Origin: Flavobacterium sp.
Lineage (GTDB): Bacteria; Bacteroidota; Bacteroidia; Flavobacteriales; Flavobacteriaceae
NCBI GenBank assembly: GCA_044347145.1
Contig: JBIIXU010000009.1
Span: forward strand, 3,331 to 67,330
Direction of reading: 5' to 3'
Length of the DNA stretch: 64,000 bases
Part shown: positions 2,398-56,197 of the stretch, piece by piece
How the letters are laid out: each line of letters starts with the position of its first letter
Position numbering within the stretch: the stretch's first letter is position 1
Notes under the pieces: generated by a model
What the model was told of the DNA's origin: nothing
What the model saw: only the letters and a program-made list of their open reading frames with translations
Databases searched by the model: none
Made by a program: the position numbers and the translations under genes

Positions 2398-5300
2398 TTA
2401 TTCACAAACAGGTTCAATGCATTTCCAAGCCCCAGAGCTAAACAATTGCATGCAATTACTATCTGTATTATAGATTAATAATCCCTCTGCCCCTGCTGGT
2501 CTGTTTGCATTTGATACTCTAGGAATTACAAAACCTTTAGATTTGGTATCGAAGGCAATAAAACCACCTGTTCTATTCTTTGGAAAATCTGTAGACATGG
2601 TGGCTTGTGTGCCAAAACCTATTTTTGTTTCATCGCCAGTTGCTGAATTGGTGTGGTTTACTGGCAAAACACCTGATGCCCAAGTAAACGTTCCAAAAGA
2701 AGTGGTTGGATTTGATGTTACGTAGCTGTTATTTGGCACAGCAGGCGTGATAGAGCCTCTGTTTCTCCAAACTGTGCCATCAAGGTTAACAATTTGCCCA
2801 CAGGTTTGTGTTGCGCAACGGTCATTGTTTAAATTTAATGACACATTTACAGCGCTTGAACCAGCACCTCTGTTTAAAAACCAATGCTCACAAGTTGATA
2901 AATCTCTTACACCTGTTTCTTTTGTTGTTCCTACAGTTGCGTTGGCATCGTTGTAACAAGTTGTAAAATGATCAGTAGAACCACTTGGAGCGGAAATATA
3001 TATTGGTGCATATTTACCATTAGTTCCTACAGGGAAAGTAAAAGCTGTGTTGCCAACTTTGCGAATAACCCCTTTAACATAACTTGCATTGCTGCCACCA
3101 GAAACACTTGATCCCGCAGCCATGGTTAGCAAAGGTATATTACTTGTTGTTGCACTACACACCCCTGTAATAAGCTCACCATCTGTTAAGGTTAAAACAT
3201 TATTAACCGTTCGGTTATCTCTTAATGTTACACCAGTTGACGATGTATTATTTATTATCAAGTTTTTTAACGCTGTACCACTTGTTGGCCAAGCGGCCCA
3301 ACCAGCACCGGGGGCTATACCAGTGCCATTAATGGTTTCTTGTGCAGACACGCCATTATAAACCTCATTAATTGGTTGGCTATTTGCAGTGCTTACATAA
3401 AAACGATTTCTTACACTGCCTGTAGTAAAAGGATGCGCAATATTTAAAGTTTGCTCTACATTTCTATTGAAATAAAAACCTGTTGTTCCTGGTAATGCTC
3501 CAGCAAAAGTAACATTTTCGCTAATTGTTACACTTGGACCTCTAGATACTAAAAATCCTACACCAGAACTAGTAGCTAAAGAAAAAGTACCACCAACTAA
3601 ATTTATATTACCATCTACATTAAGAGTTGTGTTTTCTGTACCTGTAACAATTGCAAAATCAGCATTAGGGTGTACTTCAAAATTACCACTTACTGTAACG
3701 GTTGGTCCAGTACTAGCTGCCAGTCGAACCTGTCTTCCTCTTGTATGTTTTACAATAAAATTACCATTAACAGTAGTTAAATTACCTGCAAAACTAAGAA
3801 CAGCACCTGGGTCCACACTTAAATCTATCGTTAAATTACCATAAGATGAATTGTTAGGTAAACTAGTATTTGTTTTATTTATTTCAACCGTACTCGAATT
3901 TCCAAAAACCTCTGTACCCTGAAAAATTGATGAACCCCAAGCATTTGCGTTATCATGCTTATATAGCCCACCATTATCTATCTGAAAAGTACCAGTTGCA
4001 GGTATTGTAACTGCAAAAGTTGAAACTAAAGTTCCGCCATTTTCTATTTGAAGCGTAGAGTTAGTTGACCATGCTGCACTGGTAGTCATGGTATGACCAT
4101 TTTGAATTACAAATCGTGCAGGTGATGTAAAATTTGCAGGTGAAGCACCAAGACCATCAGGTGTTCTAGACCAATTGCCTTCAGTGTTGGGCGCTAATGA
4201 GCCTTTAGAGTAATAAGTAATATAGCCTTTGGGCATGATTTCACCAGACGTTTTCATTACTGCACCTGGTTCATAGCCCTCAAATGTAATTTGGTCTAGT
4301 TGGGTTGCGGTTAAATGAGCATTTGAAGAACCTACAATTATTCTTCCAGCTGAAGCTGTTCCTCCAGTTCCAGGAGTTCCGCTCCAGTTAGTTATCGTTA
4401 ATGTTTTTCCAGAAGTCCATGATACTATGTTACTTGCTGCAAATGTTAAGGTATGTGAATTACCGCCATCACCTAACCTAATGATTGAGTTCTCTAATAA
4501 TTGTAAAGTACCTACAGTGTCGGAATTACCTGTAGCCGCCCCAGTACTGTAAGTACCACCATTCATGATGATATTTGAAGTATCTGCAATTCTATTTGGA
4601 TTATTGGTTTCCATAGTGCCACTAGTAATTCTAGTAGCTCCTGTGTAAGTCATGGCTATTGCCAAAACAACCTTTCCAGAGCCAGTAGAATTATAGTTTA
4701 CTCCACTAGTACCAGCTATAGCTCCAGCAATAGATAAATTTCCCGAATTTTCTGCACCAACGGTTAAAGGACCATTAATTGTAAAACCTGTATTGGAAGC
4801 AAAATTAGTAGTTGAAGCATTATAAATAGCACCACCACCAGCATTAACATTAAATTGAATGCTTGTAGCAACAGCACTTGTTCCTGTAAAACGCAATGTA
4901 CCACTAGTACTCGCAGTACCTAAAGTTATTGGTCTAATTCCCATCCTAACAGGAAAATTATCTGTCAATAATGTCCCGTTTTCTACCAACCATGTGCCAG
5001 TCATCCAACTGTTATTAGTTGCCAGTTGCATGGTTCCTGGGCCTATTTTAGTAATATCATCAGAACCATTAATTGCACCGGTAAAGGCAACCGTTCCACC
5101 TGCATTCACTACCTCAATAGTTAAAGGTCTTCCTGAGGCTGAACGCAATATACTACCCGAGAACGTACTGGTACCTGAGGTGTTTAATCCTCCTAAAAAA
5201 CGTGTATTGGCATTACCAGGGTTGACATTAATATTTCTTGAAAAAGTAGTGCCACCAGCAGCTCTTGAAAGGAAAATTTTGGTTGTGTTTCCTAATTGGC

Positions 5301-5991
5301 CACCATTGCCAAGCCAAATAGCAGAACCAGAAGCAATGGCATCTCCTGTGGTTTCAATCCAAAGTTCACCATTATCAAGTTCTGTGTTGCCAGAATAGGT
5401 ATTTAAGTCATTGAAAATAACTTTACTATTTTGACGAATTCTGAATGCACCAGCTCCAGATATAATATTGTTAAATCTAGCTGTAAAACCATTATTACCA
5501 TAAATATCAATCGGACTACCTTGATTTCCAATTGTGTTGTTGAATGTCAAATTTCCACTGACTGGATTTATCTCCAACGGATCACCTGCATCACCATCAC
5601 CCAAAATATTAAAACTAATAATATGACTTCCTGATGATTGGTTTTCTATTTTTGGATCAGCTCCGCTACTATCAAAAAAACGAATGATGTTAGCTCCAGC
5701 ATTTCCGATAGTTCTATTCGACGTATTTGACGAGCCAAAAATAATTTGATGAATATTATATGTTCCGGGAACATTATTAGTCATCGTAAGTTGATGATTA
5801 TTGTTGAATCTTAATATACCAAATCCTGGTTCATCAAAGCATCCACCGCCACATGATCCTCCAAACCATCTTGCCCCTGATGCACCTTGCCGCCAATTGC
5901 CATCTGGCGCAGTATTCATCCAATCAAAAGTTGTTTGTGAAAAAACAACACACCCGAGCAGAAAAAAAAATATTAAAATTATTTTTTTCAT
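2398..5991 (-). CDS. Large secreted beta-helix / autotransporter-repeat-like adhesin
   Basis: Long ORF. The likely start is MKKIILIFFFLLGCVVFSQ (ATG at 5991), not the upstream track start at 6027. It is rich in Gly/Asn/Thr repeats such as NTYSGNTELDNGELW and MTYTGATRITSGTMETN, resembling PATR-type beta-strand repeats. The C-terminus is KGFVIPRVSN...SGAWKCIEP. Confidence 0.7.
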   Translation of the reverse strand: MKKIILIFFFLLGCVVFSQTTFDWMNTAPDGNWRQGASGARWFGGSCGGGCFDEPGFGILRFNNNHQLTMTNNVPGTYNIHQIIFGSSNTSNRTIGNAGANIIRFFDSSGADPKIENQSSGSHIISFNILGDGDAGDPLEINPVSGNLTFNNTIGNQGSPIDIYGNNGFTARFNNIISGAGAFRIRQNSKVIFNDLNTYSGNTELDNGELWIETTGDAIASGSAIWLGNGGQLGNTTKIFLSRAAGGTTFSRNINVNPGNANTRFLGGLNTSGTSTFSGSILRSASGRPLTIEVVNAGGTVAFTGAINGSDDITKIGPGTMQLATNNSWMTGTWLVENGTLLTDNFPVRMGIRPITLGTASTSGTLRFTGTSAVATSIQFNVNAGGGAIYNASTTNFASNTGFTINGPLTVGAENSGNLSIAGAIAGTSGVNYNSTGSGKVVLAIAMTYTGATRITSGTMETNNPNRIADTSNIIMNGGTYSTGAATGNSDTVGTLQLLENSIIRLGDGGNSHTLTFAASNIVSWTSGKTLTITNWSGTPGTGGTASAGRIIVGSSNAHLTATQLDQITFEGYEPGAVMKTSGEIMPKGYITYYSKGSLAPNTEGNWSRTPDGLGASPANFTSPARFVIQNGHTMTTSAAWSTNSTLQIENGGTLVSTFAVTIPATGTFQIDNGGLYKHDNANAWGSSIFQGTEVFGNSSTVEINKTNTSLPNNSSYGNLTIDLSVDPGAVLSFAGNLTTVNGNFIVKHTRGRQVRLAASTGPTVTVSGNFEVHPNADFAIVTGTENTTLNVDGNINLVGGTFSLATSSGVGFLVSRGPSVTISENVTFAGALPGTTGFYFNRNVEQTLNIAHPFTTGSVRNRFYVSTANSQPINEVYNGVSAQETINGTGIAPGAGWAAWPTSGTALKNLIINNTSSTGVTLRDNRTVNNVLTLTDGELITGVCSATTSNIPLLTMAAGSSVSGGSNASYVKGVIRKVGNTAFTFPVGTNGKYAPIYISAPSGSTDHFTTCYNDANATVGTTKETGVRDLSTCEHWFLNRGAGSSAVNVSLNLNNDRCATQTCGQIVNLDGTVWRNRGSITPAVPNNSYVTSNPTTSFGTFTWASGVLPVNHTNSATGDETKIGFGTQATMSTDFPKNRTGGFIAFDTKSKGFVIPRVSNANRPAGAEGLLIYNTDSNCMQLFSSGAWKCIEPVCE

Positions 5992-43939: not shown

Positions 43940-44683
43940 CTACCCGTTAAAAACGCCCAACAGTGCATCTTTATAAGTCGCTGCCACATCAATCTCTTTT
44001 TTATTGATTAATGTAACCACGCCACCACTACCTTTTTGATAACTCACCATGAATTCTGTATTGATGATATGCGACCGATGAATGCGAATAAAAGGCGCAG
44101 CAAGCAAATCTTCAAAATGTTTTAAAAAACGACAAACCATTTTTTTACCGCCATCTTTTAAATGTATCTGCGTAAAATTGCCGTCTGCTTCTAGATGAAC
44201 AATTTGGTCTAATTTAACTACCTCAAATCCTTGCAAGGTGGGAATAATCAATTGTTGTTGGATGTGATTTTGTTTGATGTTTTGCAACAAAATTTCATTT
44301 CTATTAAAATTTTCATTTTTTTCTATTTGTTCTTGCACTTTTGCAACTGCTTTGATTAGCTCTTGAATATCTATAGGTTTTAAGATGTAATATGAAGCAC
44401 TCATATTCAAAGCTTGCAAAGAGTACTCAGAAAAAGCGGTAATAAAAATGGTTTCATAAGTACAATCTGCCGTGGCTTCTAACACATCAAAGGCATTGCC
44501 AAAAGGCATTTCTACATCCAAAAAAACCAATTGCGGCTGGGTAGATCTGATTAAAGGCTCAGCTTCCTTGATATTCTGCGCTTCACCTAAAACCTCAACT
44601 TGTGGACAATGCTTGGTTAAATAACTGCGTAATACCTCTCTGGCTATTTGTTCGTCGTCAACGATGACTGCTTTTATTTTCAT
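43940..44683 (-). CDS. LytTR-family two-component response regulator
   Basis: 247-aa ORF. It has a receiver domain (phospho-acceptor context LVFLDVEMP) and a C-terminal LytTR domain (FIRIHRSHIIN). Confidence 0.9.
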   Translation of the reverse strand: MKIKAVIVDDEQIAREVLRSYLTKHCPQVEVLGEAQNIKEAEPLIRSTQPQLVFLDVEMPFGNAFDVLEATADCTYETIFITAFSEYSLQALNMSASYYILKPIDIQELIKAVAKVQEQIEKNENFNRNEILLQNIKQNHIQQQLIIPTLQGFEVVKLDQIVHLEADGNFTQIHLKDGGKKMVCRFLKHFEDLLAAPFIRIHRSHIINTEFMVSYQKGSGGVVTLINKKEIDVAATYKDALLGVFNG

Positions 44684-45323: not shown

Positions 45324-45710
45324 TTAACCAATACCCCTCAACCGTTCATTCTCCAGTTCAAGTTGATTGTTTTTAGCTTTCAAAATCTCGTTCTCCTCCT
45401 CTAATTTGGCAATATATTTGCGCTGGCTGTCTAATAAATATTCTGGTACGCTGTAAATATTGTTTGTGCCTTGATAATTACCCGTTGCTTGGTCTTTGCA
45501 AATAAACACCATGCTTTCTTCACTTTCATAAATATCTTCCACTGGCACGTCTAAAGACTTGGCTATTCTGTCCCATTCTTCTTGATGAATTTTACTGTGC
45601 CCGTTTTCTTTTCTGCTATAGGTTGAGGTGGTCATGCCCATAAGTTGAGCCATTTTGGCTTGAGAAAAACCTTTGGTTAAACGTGCAGAAGTGAGTTTTG
45701 TTTTTTCCAT
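45324..45710 (-). CDS. XRE-family HTH transcriptional regulator with a C-terminal coiled coil
   Basis: It has the HTH segment LTSARLTKGFSQAKMAQLMGMTTSTYSRKENG and a C-terminal heptad-like region, KLEEENEILKAKNNQLELENERL. The likely start is MEKTKL (ATG at 45710). It is divergent from the peptide genes. Confidence 0.8.
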   Translation of the reverse strand: MEKTKLTSARLTKGFSQAKMAQLMGMTTSTYSRKENGHSKIHQEEWDRIAKSLDVPVEDIYESEESMVFICKDQATGNYQGTNNIYSVPEYLLDSQRKYIAKLEEENEILKAKNNQLELENERLRGIG

Positions 45711-45731
45711 AATCTTTGATGTTGCGTAAAA

Positions 45732-45748
45732 TTGCAATTAAATTGCAA
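45732..45748. promoter_or_regulatory. 17-bp palindrome TTGCAATT-A-AATTGCAA (operator candidate)
   Basis: Read directly, 22-38 nt upstream of the XRE ATG in the divergent intergenic region. AAATTG(C/T) also recurs at 45729, 45740 and 45771. Confidence 0.35.
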
Positions 45749-45899: not shown

Positions 45900-46103
45900 A
45901 TGGAAAGTTTAAAAAAATTTCAAAACAAACAAATTAAAGGTAATTTTATTTTTGGTGGTGGTTGGGTAAATACAAGTTCTACAAAGACCAACGAACAAGG
46001 ATGCACTGTAACTACTGAAGACAGGTTTAATGACACAAATGGTGATGGTATTTGGAATTCTGGTGAGACTGGTTCAATGTGCGTAGGTATTGAATGTAAA
46101 TAA
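45900..46103 (+). CDS. RiPP precursor peptide A1 (double-glycine-type leader)
   Basis: 67-aa ORF: MESLKKFQNKQIKGNFIFGG/GWVNTSSTKTNEQGCTVTTEDRFNDTNGDGIWNSGETGSMCVGIECK. It has a leader-like N-terminus ending in GG, and a core rich in Ser/Thr, Asp/Glu and Cys. It is first in the operon with the ATP-grasp, SPASM and C39 exporter genes. Confidence 0.7.
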   Translation: MESLKKFQNKQIKGNFIFGGGWVNTSSTKTNEQGCTVTTEDRFNDTNGDGIWNSGETGSMCVGIECK

Positions 46104-46112
46104 TTAATTATT

Positions 46113-46310
46113 ATGAAAAGTTTACAAAAATTTCAAATAAAAAAGATTTCTAATTTAAATAGAAATATAGGCAGCGGATGGGTGCATACTAGTGGATGCT
46201 GTACTCTTGTGAATGGCGAACAAGTGACTAGAGATATTTTTTATGACACCAATGGAGATGGGTCATGTAATACTTTTAGTGAATTTCAATCAATGTCTTA
46301 TGTTAAATAA
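46113..46310 (+). CDS. RiPP precursor peptide A2 (paralog of A1)
   Basis: 65-aa ORF: MKSLQKFQIKKISNLNRNIGSG/WVHTSGCCTLVNGEQVTRDIFYDTNGDGSCNTFSEFQSMSYVK. It shares M-x-SL-x-KFQ, GWV-x-TS and F-x-DTNGDG with A1. Confidence 0.7.
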   Translation: MKSLQKFQIKKISNLNRNIGSGWVHTSGCCTLVNGEQVTRDIFYDTNGDGSCNTFSEFQSMSYVK

Positions 46311-46355
46311 AATAGTTAGTTCTATATGATAACATGCATTAGAAAAATTAAATAT

Positions 46356-46970
46356 ATGGGTAAAATTTTACCCATATATTTTTTTGCAACTATAATCTTT
46401 TTATCATGTAGCAAAAAAGTTTTTTTTGCTAAAAACGCATATTGTAAAGAATTAGACAAAATAGTACATGATGACCAGTTTCAAAGAAATCAACAAAGTG
46501 TAATTGACAATAAGTATGGTTTAAGAACAAATGCTACCGTTATTGATAGTTTAAACAAGATAAAGAGCGATGATGGTTCTGCTTTTAAAAATATAAAACC
46601 AATTTCAAAACAATTAGAAAAACTTAATGACTCTGATAAGGCAAATTATCATAGAGAAAACGATTCCTTATGGAAGGTTATAAGAGCTACTGATAGTATT
46701 AATCTTGTTAAAATTATTAAAATTGTAAAAACACATGGCTTTCCAACATTTTCTAAAAGTAAAGCTAATAATTGTAGTCAAGGCTATGGTGTGATATTTA
46801 GGCATTTTGATTACAATAGTGAAAATGGAAAAAAACTCATCAAATTAATCAAAGCAGAACATAAAAAAGAACCATTAACTGATGATGAATTGAGAGGTTT
46901 AATTTGGCATGCAAATGGGAGAAAAGAAATTGAGTGGGAAATTGATGTAAAAAAATGGATGGCACAATAA
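46356..46970 (+). CDS. Lipoprotein of unknown function within the RiPP operon (immunity/accessory candidate)
   Basis: The likely start is MGKILPIYFFATIIFLSCSKK (ATG at 46356), with lipobox FLSC. No catalytic motif recognised. It overlaps the ATP-grasp gene start by 16 nt. Confidence 0.55.
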   Translation: MGKILPIYFFATIIFLSCSKKVFFAKNAYCKELDKIVHDDQFQRNQQSVIDNKYGLRTNATVIDSLNKIKSDDGSAFKNIKPISKQLEKLNDSDKANYHRENDSLWKVIRATDSINLVKIIKIVKTHGFPTFSKSKANNCSQGYGVIFRHFDYNSENGKKLIKLIKAEHKKEPLTDDELRGLIWHANGRKEIEWEIDVKKWMAQ

Positions 46971-47863
46971 TCGTATCTGAACCAAGTGATATTTCTGCGA
47001 TAAGGGTTATAGATTGGTTGTTTCACTATAACTGTAATGTTATAAAGGTTAACACAGATGAAAAATTTGAATTAAACTTTAAAATTGACAACACAAAAAC
47101 ATCATCAAATATTGATAAATTTAAGATCTGGTATAGACGTGGCTACTTTTCATTTTTTGATTTAAAAAATAACTTTAATAAATATTTAAGTGAAGAAAGT
47201 AAAAATGTTAATTTCTTTATTGAAAAAAGTAATTTTCAAACTTTTGGATCATATTTTAAAGAATTTAGTAACAATAAAATTGAGAATTTATACTTTGCGA
47301 AACTTTCCGGACTTAAAATTCCAAAAACAATTTTGACATATTCCAAGAAGGAAGTTGTTGATTACTTTGGCGAAAACAAGTTGTTGATTACTAAATCAAT
47401 ATATAAACCATATAAAGATAGCAAAAATGGTAATTGGAGTTTTATTAAAAGCCCAATCGTATTTAACTCTTCAGATTTTATTGAAAATTTTGGTTTATCA
47501 CAAGTACAGGAATATATTAAAAAAAAATTTGAAATAAGAACATTCTTTTTCAAGGACTACCATTTTAGTATGGCTATTTTCTCTCAAAACAATAGTAATA
47601 CAAAGTTTGATTATAGAAATTATGATGAAATCTTTCCAAACAGACTAGTTCCTTATGAATTGCCTAAAAAGATTGTAGGAAAACTAAAAAAATTTATGAA
47701 ATTAACTAATCATGATACTGGTTCAATTGATATTATCTATAGCACCAATAATGAATATGTTTTTTTAGAAGTAAATCCGCAGGGTCAATATGACTGGTTA
47801 TCTGGCAATTGTAATTATTATATTGATAAGTATATTGCTGAAAGCCTTTTAAATAAAAACTAA
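46955..47863 (+). CDS. ATP-grasp peptide maturase (graspetide-type ligase)
   Basis: 302-aa ORF with an ATP-grasp C-terminal pattern: VQEYIKKKFEIRTFFF, DYRNY and GSIDIIYSTNNEYVFLEVNPQGQY (the E-x-N Mg/ATP site). Its size and context match RiPP ATP-grasp ligases. Confidence 0.75.
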   Translation: MDGTIIVSEPSDISAIRVIDWLFHYNCNVIKVNTDEKFELNFKIDNTKTSSNIDKFKIWYRRGYFSFFDLKNNFNKYLSEESKNVNFFIEKSNFQTFGSYFKEFSNNKIENLYFAKLSGLKIPKTILTYSKKEVVDYFGENKLLITKSIYKPYKDSKNGNWSFIKSPIVFNSSDFIENFGLSQVQEYIKKKFEIRTFFFKDYHFSMAIFSQNNSNTKFDYRNYDEIFPNRLVPYELPKKIVGKLKKFMKLTNHDTGSIDIIYSTNNEYVFLEVNPQGQYDWLSGNCNYYIDKYIAESLLNKN

Positions 47864-47864
47864 A

Positions 47865-48029
47865 ATGAAAGATTTAAGCAAATTACCAATTGAATTTAAA
47901 AATTTACGAAATATTGAAGAGCCAAAAGCGAATAATATTGCAAAAAACTATATTATGAAAGATTATAATTCAAAATTTAATAGTTATATAAAATTTTACA
48001 AAAATATTTCTAAAAGAATTAGTTTATAA
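47865..48029 (+). CDS. Unlisted 54-aa ORF between the ATP-grasp and SPASM genes
   Basis: Hand translation gives MKDLSKLPIEFKNLRNIEEPKANNIAKNYIMKDYNSKFNSYIKFYKNISKRISL. The ATG lies 1 nt after the ATP-grasp stop, and its TAA is immediately followed by the SPASM gene ATG. At 54 aa it is shorter than every ORF in the supplied track, which may explain its absence. Confidence 0.4.
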   Translation: MKDLSKLPIEFKNLRNIEEPKANNIAKNYIMKDYNSKFNSYIKFYKNISKRISL

Positions 48030-49124
48030 ATGGATAACTTGGAGTATTTCGTATTTTTTAGCACAGTAAAAATAACTAAAGGGCATAATCAGTCTATTAT
48101 AATTGATTTTCAAAGAAATTTTAGTATGACTATACCTAATGATTTGGCTGTTTTTGTTGAATCAATCAATAAAAAGAGTAAATCAATCATTGAAAAAAAG
48201 TATTTAAAATTAAAGGAGTCAAAAGATGAGTATATTAACTTTTTGATAGAAAATGAATTTGGATTTTTTACAAACAATCCTAAAAACTTCCCAGAATTAA
48301 ATAATATTTTTCAATTACCTGAAGTAGTTTCAAATGCAATTATAGAGTATAATAATCAAAATTACTCTATTAATGATGCACTTTATAAATTAAGCAACAT
48401 AAAATGCAAAAATATTGAACTATTTCTTAAAAATAACGTGAAATTAAATAACCTTTTTAATGTGTTAGATTATATTAATAAACAAGAGCTTAATTTTTGG
48501 AATATATCCATTTTTATTAATCACGAAGAAAATAAAGAAGAAGTTGATTATAGAAAACTTTTAGACAACAAACGTATAAGTTTTATGGTAGTTTATAATT
48601 TTAAATATGATAAGAAAATTTTGAATTCAGAATCAATATTATGTTTTACAACCCAAAACTTAAATAACAGAAATACATGTGGTATATTTAATGAAGATAT
48701 TTTTAGTATTAATATTCAGCATTACACCGAATCCCTCAACCACAACTCCTGCCTCCACAAAAAAATCTCCATAGACGTTGATGGCAACATCCGCAATTGC
48801 CCTTCCATGCCACAAAGTTTTGGCAACATCAAAGACACCACACTTGAAGAAGCGCTCAACCATCTAGATTTCAAAAAATACTGGAACGTAACCAAAGACA
48901 TGATTGCCGTTTGTAAAGATTGTGAGTTTAGACATATTTGCACCGATTGCCGTGCTTATACCGAACGCACCCATTTTGGGGAAGACATCGATTTATCCAA
49001 ACCCTTAAAGTGTGGTTATAACCCCTATACCAATGAATGGGTGGAGTGGAGCACCAATCCATTAAAAGAAAAAGCCATTGAATATTACGGCATGCAAGAT
49101 TTGGTGAAAAAAGATGGTCTATAA
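48030..49124 (+). CDS. SPASM-domain Fe-S peptide maturase lacking a canonical radical-SAM motif
   Basis: 364-aa ORF. Its C-terminus carries a complete seven-Cys SPASM pattern: C241-x10-G-x4-C258, then C296-x2-C299-x5-C305-x2-C308, then C328 (VCKDCEFRHICTDC). The N-terminal 240 aa contain only three scattered Cys and no CxxxCxxC. Confidence 0.8.
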   Translation: MDNLEYFVFFSTVKITKGHNQSIIIDFQRNFSMTIPNDLAVFVESINKKSKSIIEKKYLKLKESKDEYINFLIENEFGFFTNNPKNFPELNNIFQLPEVVSNAIIEYNNQNYSINDALYKLSNIKCKNIELFLKNNVKLNNLFNVLDYINKQELNFWNISIFINHEENKEEVDYRKLLDNKRISFMVVYNFKYDKKILNSESILCFTTQNLNNRNTCGIFNEDIFSINIQHYTESLNHNSCLHKKISIDVDGNIRNCPSMPQSFGNIKDTTLEEALNHLDFKKYWNVTKDMIAVCKDCEFRHICTDCRAYTERTHFGEDIDLSKPLKCGYNPYTNEWVEWSTNPLKEKAIEYYGMQDLVKKDGL

Positions 49125-49219
49125 ACCCATCTTGCAATAATGCTCTAAAACTTCTAAAATGGTTCTAAAAGAGATAAACCTAAACTATTATTTTTTCTAA
49201 AAAAATGATTACAAAATAG

Positions 49220-51496
49220 ATGGCGTTTAAACCCTTCCCCCACTTCAAGCAACCCGATGCCAAAGACTGTGGCCCCACTTGTTTGCGCATCATTGCCAAA
49301 CATTATGGCAAGTCGTTGTCATTGCAGCAAATCCGCAACTTGAGCGAAACCACCCGAGAAGGCAGTAGCCTCATGGGACTAAGCGAAGCCGCCGAGAGCA
49401 TGGGCTTCAAAACCTTGGGCGTAAAAATCAATTTGCAAATGCTGGTTGAAGATGCCCCATTGCCTTGCATCTTGCATTGGAATAAAAATCATTTTGTGGT
49501 TCTGGCCTCCCTCAATCCCTCCAAAGGAGGGAAGTTTAAGTTTTTCAAAAGATTTTTTAGCAGTAAAAATAACGTAGCCCAAAGCTCCCCCTTTGGGGGT
49601 TGGGGGGCTGTAGTTTCCGACCCCGCCTACGGCTTAATTGAATACACCCAACAAGAATTTCTACAAGCTTGGATTGGTGCCAATGCCACCGCAGAAACAG
49701 AAGAAGGTGTTGCCTTGCTACTCGAGCCCACACCAGCCTTTTACGAACAAGAAGATGACAAATCCGACCGCAAAAGTTTTCGGTTTTTGTTAAAATATGT
49801 TATGCCATACAAACGCCTCATGGGGCAATTGGCATTGGGTTTGCTCACCGCCAGTATGCTCTCATTGGTGTTTCCGTTCCTTACCCAGAGTTTGGTTGAT
49901 GTAGGCATACGCAATCAAAACCTCAATTTTATCTATTTGGTGTTGATAGCGCAGTTGTTTTTGTTTATGGGTCGCACCGCCATTGAGGTCATTCGCTCTT
50001 GGATATTGTTGCATTTGAGCACACGCATTAACATTTCATTGGTCAGCAATTTTTTCATAAAACTCATGAACTTGCCCATTGGTTTTTTTGATACCCGGAT
50101 GACAGGCGATATTTTGCAACGCATCAATGACCATAAACGCATTGAGGTTTTGTTGACGAATACATCTTTGAGCACCTTGTTCTCCATGGTTAACCTCATT
50201 ATTTTTAGTGGGGTTTTGGCATTTTATAATTTGACTTTATTTGTAGTTTTCATCGTTTTAAGTGCGGTTTATGTGGCATGGATTTTATTTTTCCTTAAAA
50301 AACGCAAAGAATTAGACTACAAGCGGTTTTCTCAAATGTCGCAAGAAAACAGCAAAGTCATTGAACTGATTAATGGCATGCAAGAAATAAAAATGCACAA
50401 TGCCGAAAAACAAAAACGTAGGGATTGGGAGTTTGTGCAGGTGAAGTTATTTAAAATCAGTATGCAAGGCTTATCTTTAGACCAATGGCAAAGCACAGGT
50501 TCAAATTTTGTCAATGAATTGAAAAACATTCTTATCACGTTTTTATCTGCCAGTTTGGTACTCAAAGGCGACATCTCTTTGGGCATGATGTTGTCTGTGC
50601 AATACATTATTGGTCAGTTAAATAGTCCACTCATGCAATTGGTTGGTTTTATTCAGCAAGTGCAAGATGCCAAAATAAGTTTGGAGCGTTTGGGTGAAAT
50701 TCATGACAAAGTAGAAGAAGAATATCCTGAACAACAATTGCTCAAAACCGTTGAACCACAAGATTTAATGGTTGATAATCTGTTCTTTAGATACACAGGC
50801 ATGATTGATGATTATGTGCTTGAAAACCTAAGTTTAACCATTCCTCAAAATAAAACAACAGCTATTGTTGGTTCAAGTGGCAGCGGTAAAACGACTTTAT
50901 TAAAACTTTTGCTTAAGTTTTATGACCCTAATCAAGGACAAATTACGCTTGGTAAAACCCCTTTGAGCAATATCAGTCCTAAAGTATGGCGGAGTCATTG
51001 TGGTGTGGTGATGCAAGATGGTTATATTTTTAATGATACCATTGCGCAAAACATTGCCGTTGGTGATGACAGCATTGACAAAGCAAAACTTCTTCAAGCC
51101 GTTGAGGTTGCCAACATCAAAGATTTTATTGAAGGTTTGCCATTGCGTTATAATACCAAAATAGGTAATGAAGGCATGGGTATAAGTGGTGGTCAAAAAC
51201 AGCGTTTACTCATTGCCCGTGCGGTTTATAAAAACCCAGATTATATCTTTTTTGATGAAGCCACCTCTTCTTTAGATGCTAATAATGAAAAGATAATCAT
51301 GGAAAATTTAGAAAATTTTTTCAAAAATAGAACAGCCATTGTGGTAGCCCATCGTTTGAGTACGGTGAAAAATGCAGATAAAATCATTGTTTTAGAAAAA
51401 GGTAAAATCATAGAAGAAGGCACGCATAAAGATTTGGTGAAACTTAAAGGGGCTTATTATACGTTGGTAAAAAATCAATTGGAGTTGGGGGAATAG
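49220..51496 (+). CDS. Peptidase C39 domain-containing ABC transporter (bacteriocin/RiPP leader-cleaving exporter)
   Basis: 758-aa ORF. It has an N-terminal C39 domain (QPDAKDCGPTCL catalytic Cys, NHFVV His, SDPAYG Asp), six TM segments, Walker A (GSSGSGKTT), the ABC signature (ISGGQKQR) and Walker B (IFFDEATS). Confidence 0.93.
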   Translation: MAFKPFPHFKQPDAKDCGPTCLRIIAKHYGKSLSLQQIRNLSETTREGSSLMGLSEAAESMGFKTLGVKINLQMLVEDAPLPCILHWNKNHFVVLASLNPSKGGKFKFFKRFFSSKNNVAQSSPFGGWGAVVSDPAYGLIEYTQQEFLQAWIGANATAETEEGVALLLEPTPAFYEQEDDKSDRKSFRFLLKYVMPYKRLMGQLALGLLTASMLSLVFPFLTQSLVDVGIRNQNLNFIYLVLIAQLFLFMGRTAIEVIRSWILLHLSTRINISLVSNFFIKLMNLPIGFFDTRMTGDILQRINDHKRIEVLLTNTSLSTLFSMVNLIIFSGVLAFYNLTLFVVFIVLSAVYVAWILFFLKKRKELDYKRFSQMSQENSKVIELINGMQEIKMHNAEKQKRRDWEFVQVKLFKISMQGLSLDQWQSTGSNFVNELKNILITFLSASLVLKGDISLGMMLSVQYIIGQLNSPLMQLVGFIQQVQDAKISLERLGEIHDKVEEEYPEQQLLKTVEPQDLMVDNLFFRYTGMIDDYVLENLSLTIPQNKTTAIVGSSGSGKTTLLKLLLKFYDPNQGQITLGKTPLSNISPKVWRSHCGVVMQDGYIFNDTIAQNIAVGDDSIDKAKLLQAVEVANIKDFIEGLPLRYNTKIGNEGMGISGGQKQRLLIARAVYKNPDYIFFDEATSSLDANNEKIIMENLENFFKNRTAIVVAHRLSTVKNADKIIVLEKGKIIEEGTHKDLVKLKGAYYTLVKNQLELGE
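49505..49609. repeat. 105-bp in-frame element with inverted GC-rich hairpin ends inside the C39 domain
   Basis: The left end is gcctccctcaatCCCTCCaaaGGAGGGa (49505-49532). The right end is tCCCCCtttGGGGGttggggggct (49586-49609), whose reverse complement aligns with the left end. The element spans exactly 35 codons (ASLNPSKGGKFKFFKRFFSSKNNVAQSSPFGGWGA), between the catalytic His and Asp. Confidence 0.55.
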
Positions 51497-51675
51497 TAGA
51501 ATAGTATATTGTATAATGTAAAATTGTATAGATGCATGGTGTAAAAATATAAATAAGATGAAATTTAGAAATTAATTACCTTTGTGTCGAATATTAAGAG
51601 ATGTGAACAAATAATATTTAAAAAAGTTATCATAAATTGTAACTTTATTCTTATATTTGTACCAAACTGTTTAGG

Positions 51676-51969
51676 GTGAAAATATTTTCAAGAGGTACAT
51701 TAAGAGATTTTTGGGAAAAACACGCTGATGCTAAAGAATCATTAATGTCTTGGTACAGAGAAATAAATAAATCGAACTGGCATTCAATTAATGAATTAAA
51801 ATTAATCTATCCAAATGCAAGTATTTTAAGAGATAATAGAATAGTTTTTAACATAAAAGGTAATCACTATCGATTAGTTGCCAAGATTAATTTTGATTAT
51901 CAACTTTGTTTGATAAGATTTGTGGGGACTCACAGTGAATATGATAAAATTAATGCAAACGATATTTAA
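51676..51969 (+). CDS. higB: Type II toxin HigB (mRNA interferase)
   Basis: 97-aa ORF with a GTG start. The sequence MKIFSRGTLRDFWEKHADAKESL...IRFVGTHSEYDKI fits the HigB-toxin family pattern, and the toxin-first gene order is typical of higBA. Confidence 0.82.
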   Translation: MKIFSRGTLRDFWEKHADAKESLMSWYREINKSNWHSINELKLIYPNASILRDNRIVFNIKGNHYRLVAKINFDYQLCLIRFVGTHSEYDKINANDI

Positions 51970-51972
51970 ACA

Positions 51973-52329
51973 ATGAAACTAAAACCTATTAACACAGAAA
52001 AAGATTATCAAAAAGCTATGGTGCGATTAGCTATTTTGTTTGATGCAAAAAAAGGTACAGCAGAAGGCGAAGAACTTGAAATATTAGCCATATTGATTGA
52101 TAAATACGAAACAGAAAAGTTTCCTATTAATCTCCCAGATCCTATTTCAGCTATTTCATTTAGAATGGAACAAATGGGCTTAAAACAAAAGGATTTAGAG
52201 CCAATGATTGGTTTTAAAAGTAGAGTAAGTGAAATCATGAATAAAAAACGAAAACTAACGCTAAGCATGATTAGAAATTTAAGCACAAATCTAAAAATAC
52301 CTGCAGAAGTTTTGGTACAGGATTATTAA
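51973..52329 (+). CDS. higA: Antitoxin HigA (XRE-type HTH)
   Basis: 118-aa ORF starting 3 nt after higB. It has a C-terminal HTH segment (LKQKDLEPMIGFKSRVSEIMNKKRKLTLSMIRNL). Confidence 0.82.
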   Translation: MKLKPINTEKDYQKAMVRLAILFDAKKGTAEGEELEILAILIDKYETEKFPINLPDPISAISFRMEQMGLKQKDLEPMIGFKSRVSEIMNKKRKLTLSMIRNLSTNLKIPAEVLVQDY

Positions 52330-52354
52330 TTTTACACTTCAAAAACACAAAACA

Positions 52355-52573
52355 ATGGAACTAACCATCACATTAGAAGAAAACAACGAACAAGCAAAAG
52401 CCTTGGTTAAATATTTAAAAAATTTATCTTTTGTTAAGATAAAAAAAGAAAAGAAAACCAACTACAACCCCGATTTTGTAAAAAAAATATTGGAAAGAGC
52501 AGATAATGCAGCAAAGGGAAATGTTACAACAATTGATCCAAATGACTTATGGGGAAGTTTGAACTTAAAATAG
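52355..52573 (+). CDS. Antitoxin of YoeB-like module, copy 1
   Basis: 72-aa ORF that overlaps the downstream toxin start by 25 nt. Its first ~143 nt are nearly identical to 52858-53000. Confidence 0.6.
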   Translation: MELTITLEENNEQAKALVKYLKNLSFVKIKKEKKTNYNPDFVKKILERADNAAKGNVTTIDPNDLWGSLNLK

Positions 52574-52824
52574 ATGATCAAGCTAAAGAAGATTTTGCAA
52601 AGATTAGAAAATCTGGCGACCAAGCAACGATTAAAAAACTTGAGAAAATTATTCTTGAATTGTCTGAACATCCCAAAACTGGCATTGGCAATCCCGAACC
52701 ATTAAAACACCATTTAACAGGGTTTTGGAGCAGAAGATTAAATAAAAAAGACCGTTTGATTTATCAAATATTTGAAGAAAAAGTAGTAGTAATAGTCATT
52801 TCAGCTTTAGGACATTATGAGTAA
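52549..52824 (+). CDS. yoeB: YoeB/Txe-family toxin, copy 1
   Basis: 91-aa ORF with GIGNPEPLKHHLTGFWSRRLNKKDRLIY, matching the YoeB signature (GKPEPLKHNLSGFWSRRI..HRLVY in E. coli YoeB as I recall it). Confidence 0.85.
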   Translation: MGKFELKIDDQAKEDFAKIRKSGDQATIKKLEKIILELSEHPKTGIGNPEPLKHHLTGFWSRRLNKKDRLIYQIFEEKVVVIVISALGHYE

Positions 52825-52857
52825 AAACAAATCAATTTCCAATTAAAAATTAAACCC

Positions 52858-53073
52858 ATGGAACTAACCATCACATTAGAAGAAAACAACGAACAGGCGA
52901 AAGCCTTGGTTAAATATTTAAAAAATTTATCTTTTGTTAAGATAAAAAAAGAAAAGAAAACCAACTACAACCCCGATTTTGTAAAAAAAATATTGGAAAG
53001 GTCTGAGAATGCTGCAAAAGGCAATTATATTGTTGTTGATGAAGCCTATAAAAAAGAACTTTTTGGTAAATGA
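52858..53073 (+). CDS. Antitoxin of YoeB-like module, copy 2
   Basis: 71-aa ORF. The N-terminal 47 aa are identical to copy 1 and the C-terminal third is divergent. It has an ATGA overlap with the toxin. Confidence 0.6.
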   Translation: MELTITLEENNEQAKALVKYLKNLSFVKIKKEKKTNYNPDFVKKILERSENAAKGNYIVVDEAYKKELFGK

Positions 53074-53342
53074 ATTACAAAGTTATAGTAGAACCAAAGG
53101 CAGATGAAGATTTTAAAAAAATTGTAAAGTCTGGTGATAAAGCAACAATAAAAAAGCTTGAAAATATTTTGGATGAGTTAGTCCTCAGCCCCAAAACTGG
53201 CATTGGCAATCCCGAACCATTAAAACACCATTTAACAGGGTTTTGGAGCAGAAGATTAAATAAAAAAGACCGTTTGATTTATCAAATATTTGAAGAAAAA
53301 GTAGTAGTAATAGTCATTTCAGCTTTAGGACATTATGAGTAA
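53070..53342 (+). CDS. yoeB: YoeB/Txe-family toxin, copy 2
   Basis: 90-aa ORF. The last 153 nt are 100% identical to 52672-52824. The N-terminal ~40 aa have diverged from copy 1. Confidence 0.85.
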   Translation: MNYKVIVEPKADEDFKKIVKSGDKATIKKLENILDELVLSPKTGIGNPEPLKHHLTGFWSRRLNKKDRLIYQIFEEKVVVIVISALGHYE

Positions 53343-53370
53343 ATGAATTTTTTAGACTAAAAAAAACACC

Positions 53371-54681
53371 ATGCCAAACAATAATCAACACCTCAACGAA
53401 TTAGAATTAAGAAGTGAAGCCGTTCAAGACATCATGAACAAACCGCCTGTGTGGTTAATCCGCTCAGGAAATAATGTGATTTTTTTAATAGTTATTGGGC
53501 TATTTGCATTGGCTTTTTTTATTAAATATCCCGATGTGGTTGTTACTGATGTAAAGATTACCACTACTATGCCACCACAAAAAGTTATAGCAAGATCTAC
53601 TGGCACGATACAACATTTATTCGTTGAAAATCAAACCTTAGTTATGCCAAACCAACCTTTAGCTATTTTAACAAATACGGCTGATTATAAAGAAGTATTT
53701 GCTTTAAAAAAAGAAATTGATAGTATCGAAAAAAATGGTTGGGATAATTTTAAAGGTTTTATGTTAAATCACGGTTTAACTAAACTGGGTGATATTCAAC
53801 CTGTTTATTTGGCTTTTCAAAAAGATGTTTTAGCCTATTCGCAACATCTAAATTTTCAACCTTTTTCTAACGAAAAAACTGCCAATCAAAAAGAAACAAA
53901 CTATCAAAATCAACGCTATCAAATTACGCAAAACCAACTTAATACGTCAATAGAAGAATTAAAATTAAAACAAACTGATTTAAATCGTTCAGAAATCTTG
54001 TTTAACAAAGGGGTAATTGCCAAAGTTGAATTAGAACAAAAGCAATTAGAATTTTTGTCTATGCAAAAGCAAGTTCAAAATATGAAACAAGCCCTTTCGC
54101 AATTACAATCTTCGAGCAATGATTTAAATAAGCAAGACACCAATTTGCGTTTACAAGAAAGAAAAGAAGAAACACAATTGTATAATAATATGCTTTTTGC
54201 CTTACAACAACTCAAAAAAGCCATAGCCGATTGGGAATTACAATATTTATTAAAGAGCGATATAACTGGCACTATAAATTTTATGCAAATTTGGTCATCA
54301 CATCAAGCGGTGGAAAGTGGCGATATAATTTTTAGCATAATACCTGTTATAAAAAATCACGTTTTAGGTTTAGCCAAAGCCACACCTCAAAACGTTGGTA
54401 AAATTAAAACAGGTCAAAAAGTTTGGGTAAAAATTGACAATTATCCCGAGCAAGAATTTGGTATGCTTCAAGCGTCTGTTAATAACATATCAAAAACACC
54501 AGATCACGAAGGCAATTGGCATTTGCAGCTCAATTTTCCAAAAGGATTAAATACAACTTATAACAAAAACATACAACTTCAACAAGAAATGTCTGGTAAA
54601 GCAGAGGTCATTACAGAAGATTTGCGATTGATAGATAGATTTTTTTATCCGTTTAAAAAAGTGGTTTCTCAAAGTTTGTAA
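53371..54681 (+). CDS. HlyD-family membrane fusion / secretion adaptor protein
   Basis: 436-aa ORF. It has an N-terminal TM segment (IFLIVIGLFALAFFI), a long coiled-coil middle and a C-terminal beta-barrel-like region, the typical partner architecture for C39 ABC exporters. Confidence 0.85.
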   Translation: MPNNNQHLNELELRSEAVQDIMNKPPVWLIRSGNNVIFLIVIGLFALAFFIKYPDVVVTDVKITTTMPPQKVIARSTGTIQHLFVENQTLVMPNQPLAILTNTADYKEVFALKKEIDSIEKNGWDNFKGFMLNHGLTKLGDIQPVYLAFQKDVLAYSQHLNFQPFSNEKTANQKETNYQNQRYQITQNQLNTSIEELKLKQTDLNRSEILFNKGVIAKVELEQKQLEFLSMQKQVQNMKQALSQLQSSSNDLNKQDTNLRLQERKEETQLYNNMLFALQQLKKAIADWELQYLLKSDITGTINFMQIWSSHQAVESGDIIFSIIPVIKNHVLGLAKATPQNVGKIKTGQKVWVKIDNYPEQEFGMLQASVNNISKTPDHEGNWHLQLNFPKGLNTTYNKNIQLQQEMSGKAEVITEDLRLIDRFFYPFKKVVSQSL

Positions 54682-54859: not shown

Positions 54860-56197
54860 TTATATTCTAATCTTCAAAATAACCATAACACCAGCCTCGC
54901 TGTCCTTTATTTCATAATTTATCCAATGACTATAAAGTTCATTAAGTAATTTGATTCGCTCCAAAGTATTGGTCATTCCTCTGCCCTTGTGCTGATTTTG
55001 GTGTTTGGTTTTCAGGGTTTTACTTTTTTCTATACCAATGCCATTATCAATAATTGTTGTTTTGATATGGTTGCCCTCATTTTGAAAACTGACATTTATA
55101 AAACCTTTTTCCTCTTTATAACGCAGGCCATGCCATATGGCATTTTCTATAAATGGCTGAATCAGCATGCTTGGCACTTGGCTGCTGTCCAAATCTATTT
55201 TTTCATCTATGATCAATTCAAAATCGAATTTATCATGAAAACGACTTTTTTCTAAAGATAAATAATTCTTAATCAAATCTATTTCAACTGCTACCGGTAT
55301 CAAATCATTGGTGGAATTTTCCATGATGCCACGCATTAATTTAGAAAATTTACTCAGATATTGATTAGCTTCTAGCTCATTGTTTTGCGCAATAAAATGA
55401 TTGACACTGTTTAAACTATTGAAAATAAAATGCGGATTCATTTCTCTTCTCAAGGATTGTAAAGCGATTTTTTTGTTTTTGATTTGCAATTTTTTATAGG
55501 CATATAAAATACCTAAAACAGCTAAAATCAATAGAACAGTGAAAATACCCAGACCAATATTGAAGCGTTTTTGTTGCTTCATCAAATCATTTTGCAATTG
55601 ACGTTCTTTTAGTAATTGCGCAATTTTTCCTTCGGTTTCTGCAATCACACGATCATCTATTAAGGACTGGTCTTTTTGCAAAACGGTCTGCAAATCTTTT
55701 AAAAATTTGCGATAAAAAGGCAATGATTTTTCAGGTTGCTTATTGGCTTTGTGCAGACTATCAATCTTTAAAATAACCTGTCTAGCTTCTAAAGTATGAC
55801 CTTTATCCAATGCGACTTGATAGGCGCTTTCTAAAGTTTCCAAAGCTTGAATGGGTTCGTTATTTTGAACATAAAGTGAAGCCAAGTCTTGCATAGCCGC
55901 TACTTTAGTTTTTGTATTGGCTTTGACAAAATCCTCTGCAATTAATTTATTTTGTGTTATAATGGCTTGATCTAATTGGTTTTTTTCTTTTTGAATCGCT
56001 ACAATTTTATTGCTAATTTCAATTGCTTTTTGAGGCTCATGGTCTTTGAATTGATCAAATGCCTTTTGAAAATTTTGTGTGGCCAAAACCGTTTGACCTT
56101 TCTCGGCTTGTGCGTTGGCTAAATTGACATAATTAGACCCAATCTCTTCTGATTTGTTTTGCCGTTTTGACTCATACAAATTGATTTTAGCTAACAA
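54860..56197 (-). CDS. Sensor histidine kinase (PF06580-type, LytTR-partner class), apparently 5'-truncated
   Basis: The ORF has TPR-like helices, one TM segment (GLGIFTVLLILAVLGILYAY), the NPHFIFNSLNSVNHFI His-kinase motif and a HATPase region (DNGIGI). The track start is a TTG preceded four codons upstream by an in-frame stop. There is no signal peptide or N-terminal anchor, and the first ATG is ~100 codons in. Confidence 0.78.
   Translation of the reverse strand: MLAKINLYESKRQNKSEEIGSNYVNLANAQAEKGQTVLATQNFQKAFDQFKDHEPQKAIEISNKIVAIQKEKNQLDQAIITQNKLIAEDFVKANTKTKVAAMQDLASLYVQNNEPIQALETLESAYQVALDKGHTLEARQVILKIDSLHKANKQPEKSLPFYRKFLKDLQTVLQKDQSLIDDRVIAETEGKIAQLLKERQLQNDLMKQQKRFNIGLGIFTVLLILAVLGILYAYKKLQIKNKKIALQSLRREMNPHFIFNSLNSVNHFIAQNNELEANQYLSKFSKLMRGIMENSTNDLIPVAVEIDLIKNYLSLEKSRFHDKFDFELIIDEKIDLDSSQVPSMLIQPFIENAIWHGLRYKEEKGFINVSFQNEGNHIKTTIIDNGIGIEKSKTLKTKHQNQHKGRGMTNTLERIKLLNELYSHWINYEIKDSEAGVMVILKIRI

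Follow-up and report, generated by a model that had tools for sequence, protein, structure and literature searches.

The open reading frame (ORF) at positions 48030..49124 of a 64,000-nucleotide (nt) stretch of Flavobacterium sp. DNA (assembly GCA_044347145.1, contig JBIIXU010000009.1, positions 3,331 to 67,330; hereafter the window, 34% G+C) encodes a protein that, judged by its sequence, is a regular member of the grasp-with-spasm SPASM peptide maturase family TIGR04193. The product of this gene, GwsS, combines a SPASM domain with the absence of a radical S-adenosylmethionine (SAM) site. The combination is a real trait that holds family-wide and is already known, not a discovery; the novelty implied by a first-pass annotation of the window was overstated, as the trait belongs to an already named family. 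The predicted fold of GwsS points to descent from a radical-SAM peptide maturase whose radical-generating core has decayed, and the protein probably now serves as a SAM-independent, iron-sulfur partner of the neighboring ATP-grasp ligase.

Scored against the NCBIfam model TIGR04193, the ORF reaches 311.5 bits, with a cutoff of 175, and positions 1-341 of the 342-position model align end to end with GwsS residues 6-346. Because the match spans the full model, the GwsS protein is complete and has lost no N-terminal piece. All testable features that define the family were found, namely a full-length hidden Markov model (HMM) match that scores higher than the curated equivalog cutoff, an adjoining ATP-grasp gene, and a SPASM domain in the absence of a radical-SAM domain. 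The family was reportedly named by Haft and Basu in 2011, and its description, which we take to have been curated since that year, specifies a SPASM domain that is present and a radical-SAM domain that is absent. The gene symbol for the family is gwsS (bioRxiv 10.64898/2026.08.04.741601). The same proteins correspond to 'cluster 20' of branch 5 in the survey of Makarova 2022 (PMC8939145) and to the partner of group 14 graspetides, listed as uncharacterised, in Carter 2026 (PMC13097080).

The family is large: a word-indexed search returned 3744 homologues of GwsS, and an exhaustive profile search returned 4061 cluster representatives, of which 1930 reach E<=1e-30. Among the matches listed, most homologues are about 340-380 amino acids (aa) long, and PF13186 is the sole precomputed Pfam domain among the 120 top homologues. 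Relatives with a named source belong to Chryseobacterium, Flavobacterium and Bizionia and are at most 55% identical to the window protein, and one metagenomic relative is 89% identical. Other TIGR04193 members share with the window protein the same operon, the same eight invariant Cys residues and the same absence of a CxxxCxxC motif. The window differs from them in a Val in place of the common Cys at position 13, in an ATP-grasp ligase that scores below the TIGR04192 cutoff, and in three toxin-antitoxin pairs inserted before hlyD. In one metagenomic protein of 504 aa (P0225), an N-terminal segment of 147 residues that resembles ATP-grasp residues 59-194 is followed by a full GwsS. A natural ATP-grasp-GwsS fusion was considered for this protein and rejected in favor of a deletion or gene-calling artefact involving a truncated gene, which is the probable explanation.

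SPASM domains are recognized by a seven-Cys motif, CX9-15GX4C ... CX2CX5CX3C ... C. In GwsS, Cys residues are found at positions 126, 205, 217, 241, 257, 295, 298, 304, 307 and 328, and the signature reads C241-x10-G252-x4-C257 ... C295-x2-C298-x5-C304-x2-C307 ... C328, which departs from the motif in its last spacing only (x2 between C304 and C307, versus the usual x3). The first-pass annotation had placed C205, C217, C241 and C328 correctly, and had numbered C125, C258, C296, C299, C305 and C308 each off by one. Since PF13186 (28.7 bits, cutoff 21.5), TIGR04085 (32.4 bits, cutoff 27) and TIGR04193 all score above their cutoffs, the signature is beyond chance. Invariance was counted over 150 family representatives that are 33-48% identical to the query GwsS, and exactly eight Cys residues are invariant among them: C217, which is always followed by Gly (C217-G218), and the seven of the SPASM motif. 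The earlier claim of a full seven-Cys SPASM signature in this ORF is confirmed. In the enzyme anSME, eight Cys residues fully ligate two auxiliary [4Fe-4S] clusters (PMC5491770). By analogy, the eight invariant Cys of GwsS would be enough for two fully ligated clusters, and the SPASM domain is predicted probably to hold two [4Fe-4S] clusters. anSME differs in being a working radical-SAM enzyme, and the distance from the extra Cys to the start of the motif is 6 residues in anSME but 24 (from C217) in GwsS.

The CxxxCxxC motif is absent from the GwsS protein and from every frame of positions 46900-49200, from all open frames of at least 100 codons across the window, and from the retrieved family sequences (0 of 269). 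The Radical_SAM model PF04055 matches neither full-length GwsS nor any of 10 N-terminal fragments at E<=10. Of the features that define the radical-SAM superfamily, GwsS thus has neither the motif nor a profile match, and its SAM-binding residues are not conserved; what is left is a remnant of the fold. The first-pass annotation had reported that no CxxxCxxC lies upstream of the SPASM domain and had concluded that the canonical 5'-deoxyadenosyl radical could not be made; both statements hold, and no Radical_SAM Pfam domain is found among the listed family members. Canonical radical generation is predicted to be impossible for GwsS and for the whole family. In the 2022 survey these proteins are called "SPASM radical SAM enzymes", and their products are predicted to contain thioether crosslinks (PMC8939145). 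On the sequence evidence, a label of thioether-forming radical SAM enzyme is unsupported and has no chemical basis, and because no family member examined has the radical-generating site, the published product predictions need revision.

An AlphaFold model of GwsS built with 140 diverse sequences has a mean predicted local distance difference test (pLDDT) score of 93.4 and a predicted template modelling (pTM) score of 0.89, and divides the protein into three parts. The N-terminal part resembles an RRE, the recognition element of enzymes that mature peptides made by ribosomes and modified after translation (RiPPs). An RRE is a winged-helix fold with a three-stranded sheet and then three helices; the modelled part has four strands and three helices, with strands at residues 6-9, 13-17, 21-26 and 31-36 and helices at 37-46, 51-57 and 59-74, with pLDDT of 87-98 over residues 1-81. 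The middle part consists of (beta-alpha)x3, then a fourth strand and a hairpin. The radical-SAM core fold is a partial (beta/alpha)6 TIM barrel, and the half-barrel modelled for GwsS is much shorter, at about (beta/alpha)3-4 (Foldseek TM 0.25-0.54). C217 and a helix then lead into the SPASM hairpin (245-255), which is followed by the remaining SPASM domain. The first-pass annotation had proposed an N-terminal peptide-recognition module, which is supported at the level of fold for residues 1-81 by their strands and helices and by the end-to-end alignment of the whole model with SuiB and CteB, and is not reflected in any PqqD match in Pfam. It had also suggested that structure prediction might reveal an RRE-like fold or a degenerate TIM barrel; the model suggests the former for residues 1-81 and has an abridged half-barrel at residues 102-207.

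A Foldseek search of the PDB at E<=1e-3 gave only nine matches, all of them to the radical-SAM enzymes SuiB, CteB or BtrN (probability 0.97-1.0). The alignments to SuiB and CteB extend over 430-470 columns, run end to end and are colinear with the RRE-radical-SAM-SPASM order of those enzymes; the match to BtrN has a TM of 0.54 normalised to the length of BtrN, and the cores of viperin and ThiH give matches of about 100 columns. An earlier AlphaFold model from 54 close homologues, in which residues 293-364 fell below pLDDT 50, returned the same top hits without a confident C-terminal SPASM half. The best structural matches, SuiB (streptide; 5v1q, 5v1s and 5v1t) and CteB (ranthipeptide/sactipeptide-type; 5wgg and 5why), share with the GwsS model the N- to C-terminal order of an RRE or RRE-like module, alpha/beta core and SPASM domain, and with GwsS a role in RiPP maturation. 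GwsS differs from them in being about 75 residues shorter, with the whole difference in the barrel, in lacking the CX3CX2C loop, a Radical_SAM Pfam match and conserved SAM-binding residues, and in having eight rather than seven invariant Cys residues in its auxiliary region. BtrN (4m7s and 4m7t), a radical-SAM dehydrogenase with a twitch domain and an abridged barrel, the smallest known among radical-SAM enzymes, is similar to the GwsS model in that a small partial barrel is followed by an auxiliary-cluster beta-hairpin. Unlike GwsS, BtrN has a SAM cluster, no RRE, one auxiliary cluster and a sugar substrate.

Conservation is distributed very unevenly along the protein. The alpha/beta domain (102-207) has the highest mean entropy of any region (2.93 bits), with a single column of 106 conserved at >=90% (N102); the RRE-like module (1-81) has a mean entropy of 2.58 bits and 2 of 81 such columns, and the SPASM domain (241-330) has a mean entropy of 1.09 bits and 38 of 90. 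The GGE and related SAM-binding motifs have no conserved counterpart in the alpha/beta domain, and because only one column is conserved there, this domain is without a conserved SAM site. The functional centre of GwsS is, by this conservation pattern, predicted to be the SPASM domain together with the C-terminal extension. From the modelled fold we infer, with good support, that GwsS is a decayed RRE-radical-SAM-SPASM maturase of the SuiB/CteB type, and the alpha/beta half-barrel may be what remains of a radical-SAM core that has no cluster loop.

A neighbourhood survey covered 79 related loci from Flavobacteriales, Saprospiraceae, Chitinophagales and Pedobacter. Of the 76 loci with an ATP-grasp gene, 71 have it directly upstream of the SPASM gene and in the same orientation, and in the three loci without one the SPASM gene is close to a contig end. 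BLAST relatives of the window's C39-ABC exporter, HlyD protein and lipoprotein occur in 50, 44 and 7 of the 79 loci, respectively. The Bacteroidota branch 5 graspetide locus has been described as including a small LPL protein that is always just upstream of the SPASM gene (PMC8939145). In 55 of the 71 loci, the roughly 165 nt that separate the ATP-grasp and SPASM genes are occupied by an ORF of at least 30 aa. A K[PNS][IVL]x[KR] motif ("FYKPISKI") is present at the C-terminus of 42 of these 55 ORFs, and LP[LIVF] at the N-terminus of 26; the ORF of the window has both. The conserved motifs thus sit at opposite ends of the LPL ORF, with a variable, Lys-rich linker between them, a layout that would fit a tether, or a leader acting in trans, between the ATP-grasp ligase and GwsS. 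In the window, the ATP-grasp gene is 166 nt upstream of gwsS with the LPL ORF in between; the ATP-grasp/LPL junction is 1 nt and the LPL/gwsS junction 0 nt, so that the LPL stop codon abuts the gwsS start.

ORFs with a leader, a GG site and a core, comparable to the two precursor genes of the window, are found upstream of the ATP-grasp gene in related loci. The predicted cores contain 3.9% Cys, versus 1.06% in the large ORFs of the same loci (a 3.7-fold enrichment), and 64 of 73 precursor-like ORFs have at least one Cys, often an odd number. The loci with Cys-free precursors only are L040, L042, L043, L048, L049, L055 and L071. A longer gap between the ATP-grasp and SPASM genes, of 271-460 nt, was observed in L040, L043, L048 and L049, and the Cys-free loci may form a distinct subgroup.

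The reading that we favor, and that we regard as somewhat probable, is that GwsS is a SAM-independent, precursor-docking iron-sulfur partner of the ATP-grasp ligase, descended from a decayed radical-SAM maturase. The ancestor, to judge from the fold, would have been an RRE-radical-SAM-SPASM peptide maturase of the SuiB/CteB type. The leader-recognition module at the N-terminus and the SPASM domain would have been retained in GwsS, and the radical-SAM barrel would have been reduced to a half-barrel that is poorly conserved and has neither a cluster loop nor conserved SAM-binding residues, leaving a protein that would perform no 5'-deoxyadenosyl radical chemistry. Through its RRE-like module, GwsS would dock the precursor or the LPL peptide as the partner of the ATP-grasp ligase, probably as part of a GwsG-LPL-GwsS complex whose genes are translationally coupled. 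The highly conserved SPASM domain, with its two predicted clusters, would have a SAM-independent role, in electron transfer and redox chemistry or in thiolate handling, on cores that are usually Cys-rich, and the modified peptide would then be cleaved and exported. Docking in a complex with the ATP-grasp ligase is suggested because the leaders of branch-5 precursors are without the motif through which the ATP-grasp is bound by other graspetide leaders (PMC8939145), and because graspetide synthetases that depend on a partner protein have precedent (PMC13097080). Precursor presentation to a modifying enzyme is a role that GwsS may share with the stand-alone RRE chaperones of the PqqD type and with the MirC partner (Carter 2026). 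Unlike the PqqD-type chaperones, GwsS has its recognition module fused to an iron-sulfur domain, and MirC-type partners are unrelated to it in sequence.

Several observations weigh against this reading. The full-chain Foldseek TM values are low (0.25-0.42) and are global scores from a predicted structure, which bears on the assignment of both the RRE and the relic barrel. Profile methods found no sequence-level similarity for the N-terminal 222 aa: N-terminal fragments of ten family members gave nothing relevant in Pfam at E<=10, the GwsS N-terminus gave only a marginal sigma-28 match (E 0.045) in a PDB profile search at E<=10, and an hhalign comparison of GwsS with the radical-SAM/SPASM-like protein of locus L033 aligned only the SPASM part, at 15% probability. 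Cys-free precursors are the only ones in 7 of 59 loci, so a Cys-directed role is not universal; an exclusive role for GwsS in Cys crosslinking was set aside on these grounds. A radical-SAM partner may be encoded elsewhere in the genome, beyond the neighbourhoods examined. The literature searched held no biochemical or functional study of any GwsS member, and the mechanism is put together from sequence and model. The chryseoviridin (CdnC) clusters were considered as a characterised example and presumably belong to a different, microviridin-like branch.

The main rival to the favored reading is that GwsS is a pure scaffold or pseudoenzyme, which recruits the precursor through its RRE and stabilises or activates the ATP-grasp ligase, with clusters that are structural and no second modification of the peptide. 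Such a role would fit the retention of GwsS in the loci with Cys-free precursors, the lack of conserved residues in the relic barrel, and the existence of partner proteins that merely stabilise a graspetide synthetase (PMC13097080). The strong conservation of the SPASM domain and C-terminal extension goes far beyond what cluster ligation needs, however, and the Cys enrichment of the cores, with their often odd numbers, likewise speaks against it; the possibility is a serious one that we nonetheless consider doubtful. At the other extreme, GwsS could be a working SAM-independent iron-sulfur enzyme whose two SPASM clusters, released from 5'-deoxyadenosyl radical chemistry, would act as catalyst or template for a new modification, Cys-linked or of another kind, of peptides cyclised by the ATP-grasp, with the LPL peptide as a trans-leader bridging the ATP-grasp ligase and the RRE; we hold this to be rather unlikely.

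The remaining explanations would restore a radical-SAM site to the system. In a split enzyme, GwsS would give its auxiliary clusters in trans to a separate radical-SAM protein, an arrangement suggested for the GeoRSP system by the name of its SPASM-only protein, TIGR04304 ('GeoRSP system SPASM domain protein'), a weak match to GwsS. A PF04055 gene does lie within 8 kb of the SPASM gene in L033, L077 and L079, and in L033 it is just upstream on the same strand. The other 76 of 79 loci have no radical-SAM gene in that range, and none was detected in the window by the CxxxCxxC scan of open frames of at least 100 codons, so that the recruited partner suggested by the first-pass annotation is not supported; moreover, in known SPASM enzymes auxiliary cluster I has to be close enough to the active site for electron transfer, within a single fold. 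A split enzyme is accordingly improbable. A cryptic enzyme, whose first 240 aa would bind a SAM cluster through three Cys in a non-canonical arrangement, had also been raised, and the presence of Cys at positions 13, 126 and 217 in most members, together with the radical-SAM-like alpha/beta fold of the middle domain, lends it some plausibility. Outside the SPASM motif, however, C217 is the sole invariant Cys. At positions 13 and 126, 74% and 72% of the 150 representatives have Cys and the others Val or Ile, an alternation that would be typical of buried core positions; the query has Val at position 13; Cys occurs at positions 13, 25 and 126 together in only 46 of the 150; and SAM-binding residues are not conserved. 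The sequences come close to refuting such a site, and we give it only a very slight chance. That a frameshift, the first-pass annotation's own caveat, or a wrong start or assembly error removed a radical-SAM motif from the ORF is refuted by the full-length family match, by the absence of the motif in every frame, by the 340-380 aa length of the homologues, and by the occurrence of the identical protein with the same gene calls on at least 23 contigs of independent JGI and ENA metagenome assemblies.

What the present analysis adds to the existing family description is a family-wide test of the Cys pattern, a three-part reading of the domains and a challenge to the published label. With 1930 cluster representatives at E<=1e-30, the GwsS family marks a whole class of Bacteroidota graspetide clusters, and it provides a natural test of what SPASM auxiliary clusters do alone. 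If SAM-independent catalysis by GwsS were true, it would be the first catalytic role of a SPASM domain outside radical-SAM enzymology.

The features of the locus are collected in Table 1. The gene belongs to a tightly packed operon, and the interval 45900..54681 contains the components of a branch 5/group 14 graspetide locus: precursors with GG leaders, an ATP-grasp ligase, an LPL ORF upstream of the SPASM gene, a C39-ABC exporter and an HlyD protein.

Table 1. Positions of gwsS, its predicted domains and surrounding features in the 64,000-nt window
Feature	Position	Strand	Basis
gwsS, grasp-with-spasm system SPASM domain peptide maturase, 364 aa	48030..49124	+	TIGR04193 match
RRE-like module, GwsS residues 1-81 (predicted)	48030..48272	+	AlphaFold model, Foldseek to SuiB/CteB
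Abridged alpha/beta half-barrel, GwsS residues 102-207 (predicted)	48333..48650	+	Model, Foldseek
Invariant C217-G218 and SPASM domain, GwsS residues 217-330	48678..49019	+	PF13186, TIGR04085, invariant Cys
Precursor peptide 1, 67 aa	45900..46103	+	ORF list; gene call also made in two independent metagenome assemblies
Precursor peptide 2, 65 aa, paralogue of precursor 1	46113..46310	+	3 Cys, DTNGDG motif
Predicted lipoprotein, 214 aa, signal peptide ending ...IIFLSC	46326..46970	+	Sequence
ATP-grasp graspetide ligase, GwsG-like, 302 aa	46955..47863	+	TIGR04192, MvdC/MvdD models, PDB relatives
Small 'LPL-family' ORF, 54 aa	47865..48029	+	N-terminal KLPIEF, C-terminal FYKNISKRI
C39 peptidase-domain ABC exporter, 758 aa	49220..51496	+	PF03412, PF00664, PF00005
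HigB/HigA-like pair, between ABC exporter and hlyD	51676..52329
Two near-duplicate DUF2683 + YoeB/ParE-like pairs	52355..52824, 52858..53342
HlyD-family membrane-fusion protein, 436 aa	53371..54681	+	TIGR01843, PF13437
LytTR response regulator	43940..44683	-
XRE-family helix-turn-helix protein	45324..45737	-
TPR-containing LytS-type histidine kinase	54860..56197	-

The ATP-grasp ligase scores 192.7 bits against TIGR04192, below the equivalog cutoff of 230, and matches the MvdC/MvdD models at E 1e-28; its PDB relatives are MdnB (7m4s), MdnC (5ig9) and CdnC (7mgv), at E 1e-16 to 1e-18. The ligase falls below its own cutoff while GwsS is far above its own, which makes the ligase the more divergent of the pair. 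The lipoprotein has no Pfam or NCBIfam match and stands in place of the 'cluster 23' protein of Makarova 2022 (PMC8939145), a correspondence by position only. The C39-ABC protein is predicted to cleave the leader at the GG site and to export the peptide. Three small ORFs of the locus are also called as genes on independent JGI and ENA metagenome contigs.

Precursor 1 has a leader that runs from MESLKKFQ to FGG, and its core contains 3 Cys as well as the loop FNDTNGDGIWNSGE. A loop resembling that of an EF-hand, D-x-[DN]-x-[DN]-G-x-h-x-x-x-[ED], is present in both precursor cores of the window and in 22 of 73 precursor-like ORFs of related loci (for example L001, L003, L016, L027, L036, L047, L072 and L078). 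In its loose form the motif has a frequency of 6.3 per 1000 aa in cores, against 0.07 in large ORFs. Calcium is not mentioned in the 2022 survey (PMC8939145); the core loop could be a Ca2+-binding loop or simply an Asp/Thr crosslink pattern.

The PF04055 gene of L033, a Crocinitomicaceae metagenome-assembled genome, lies at 4765..5955, about 950 nt upstream of the ATP-grasp gene on the same strand, and has CNLNCTYC at residue 14; this cluster may combine both chemistries. In the window itself, the three toxin-antitoxin pairs between the ABC exporter gene and hlyD occupy positions 51676..53342. The cluster is flanked by genes for LytTR, XRE-family and LytS-type proteins, which are possible regulators of peptide production.

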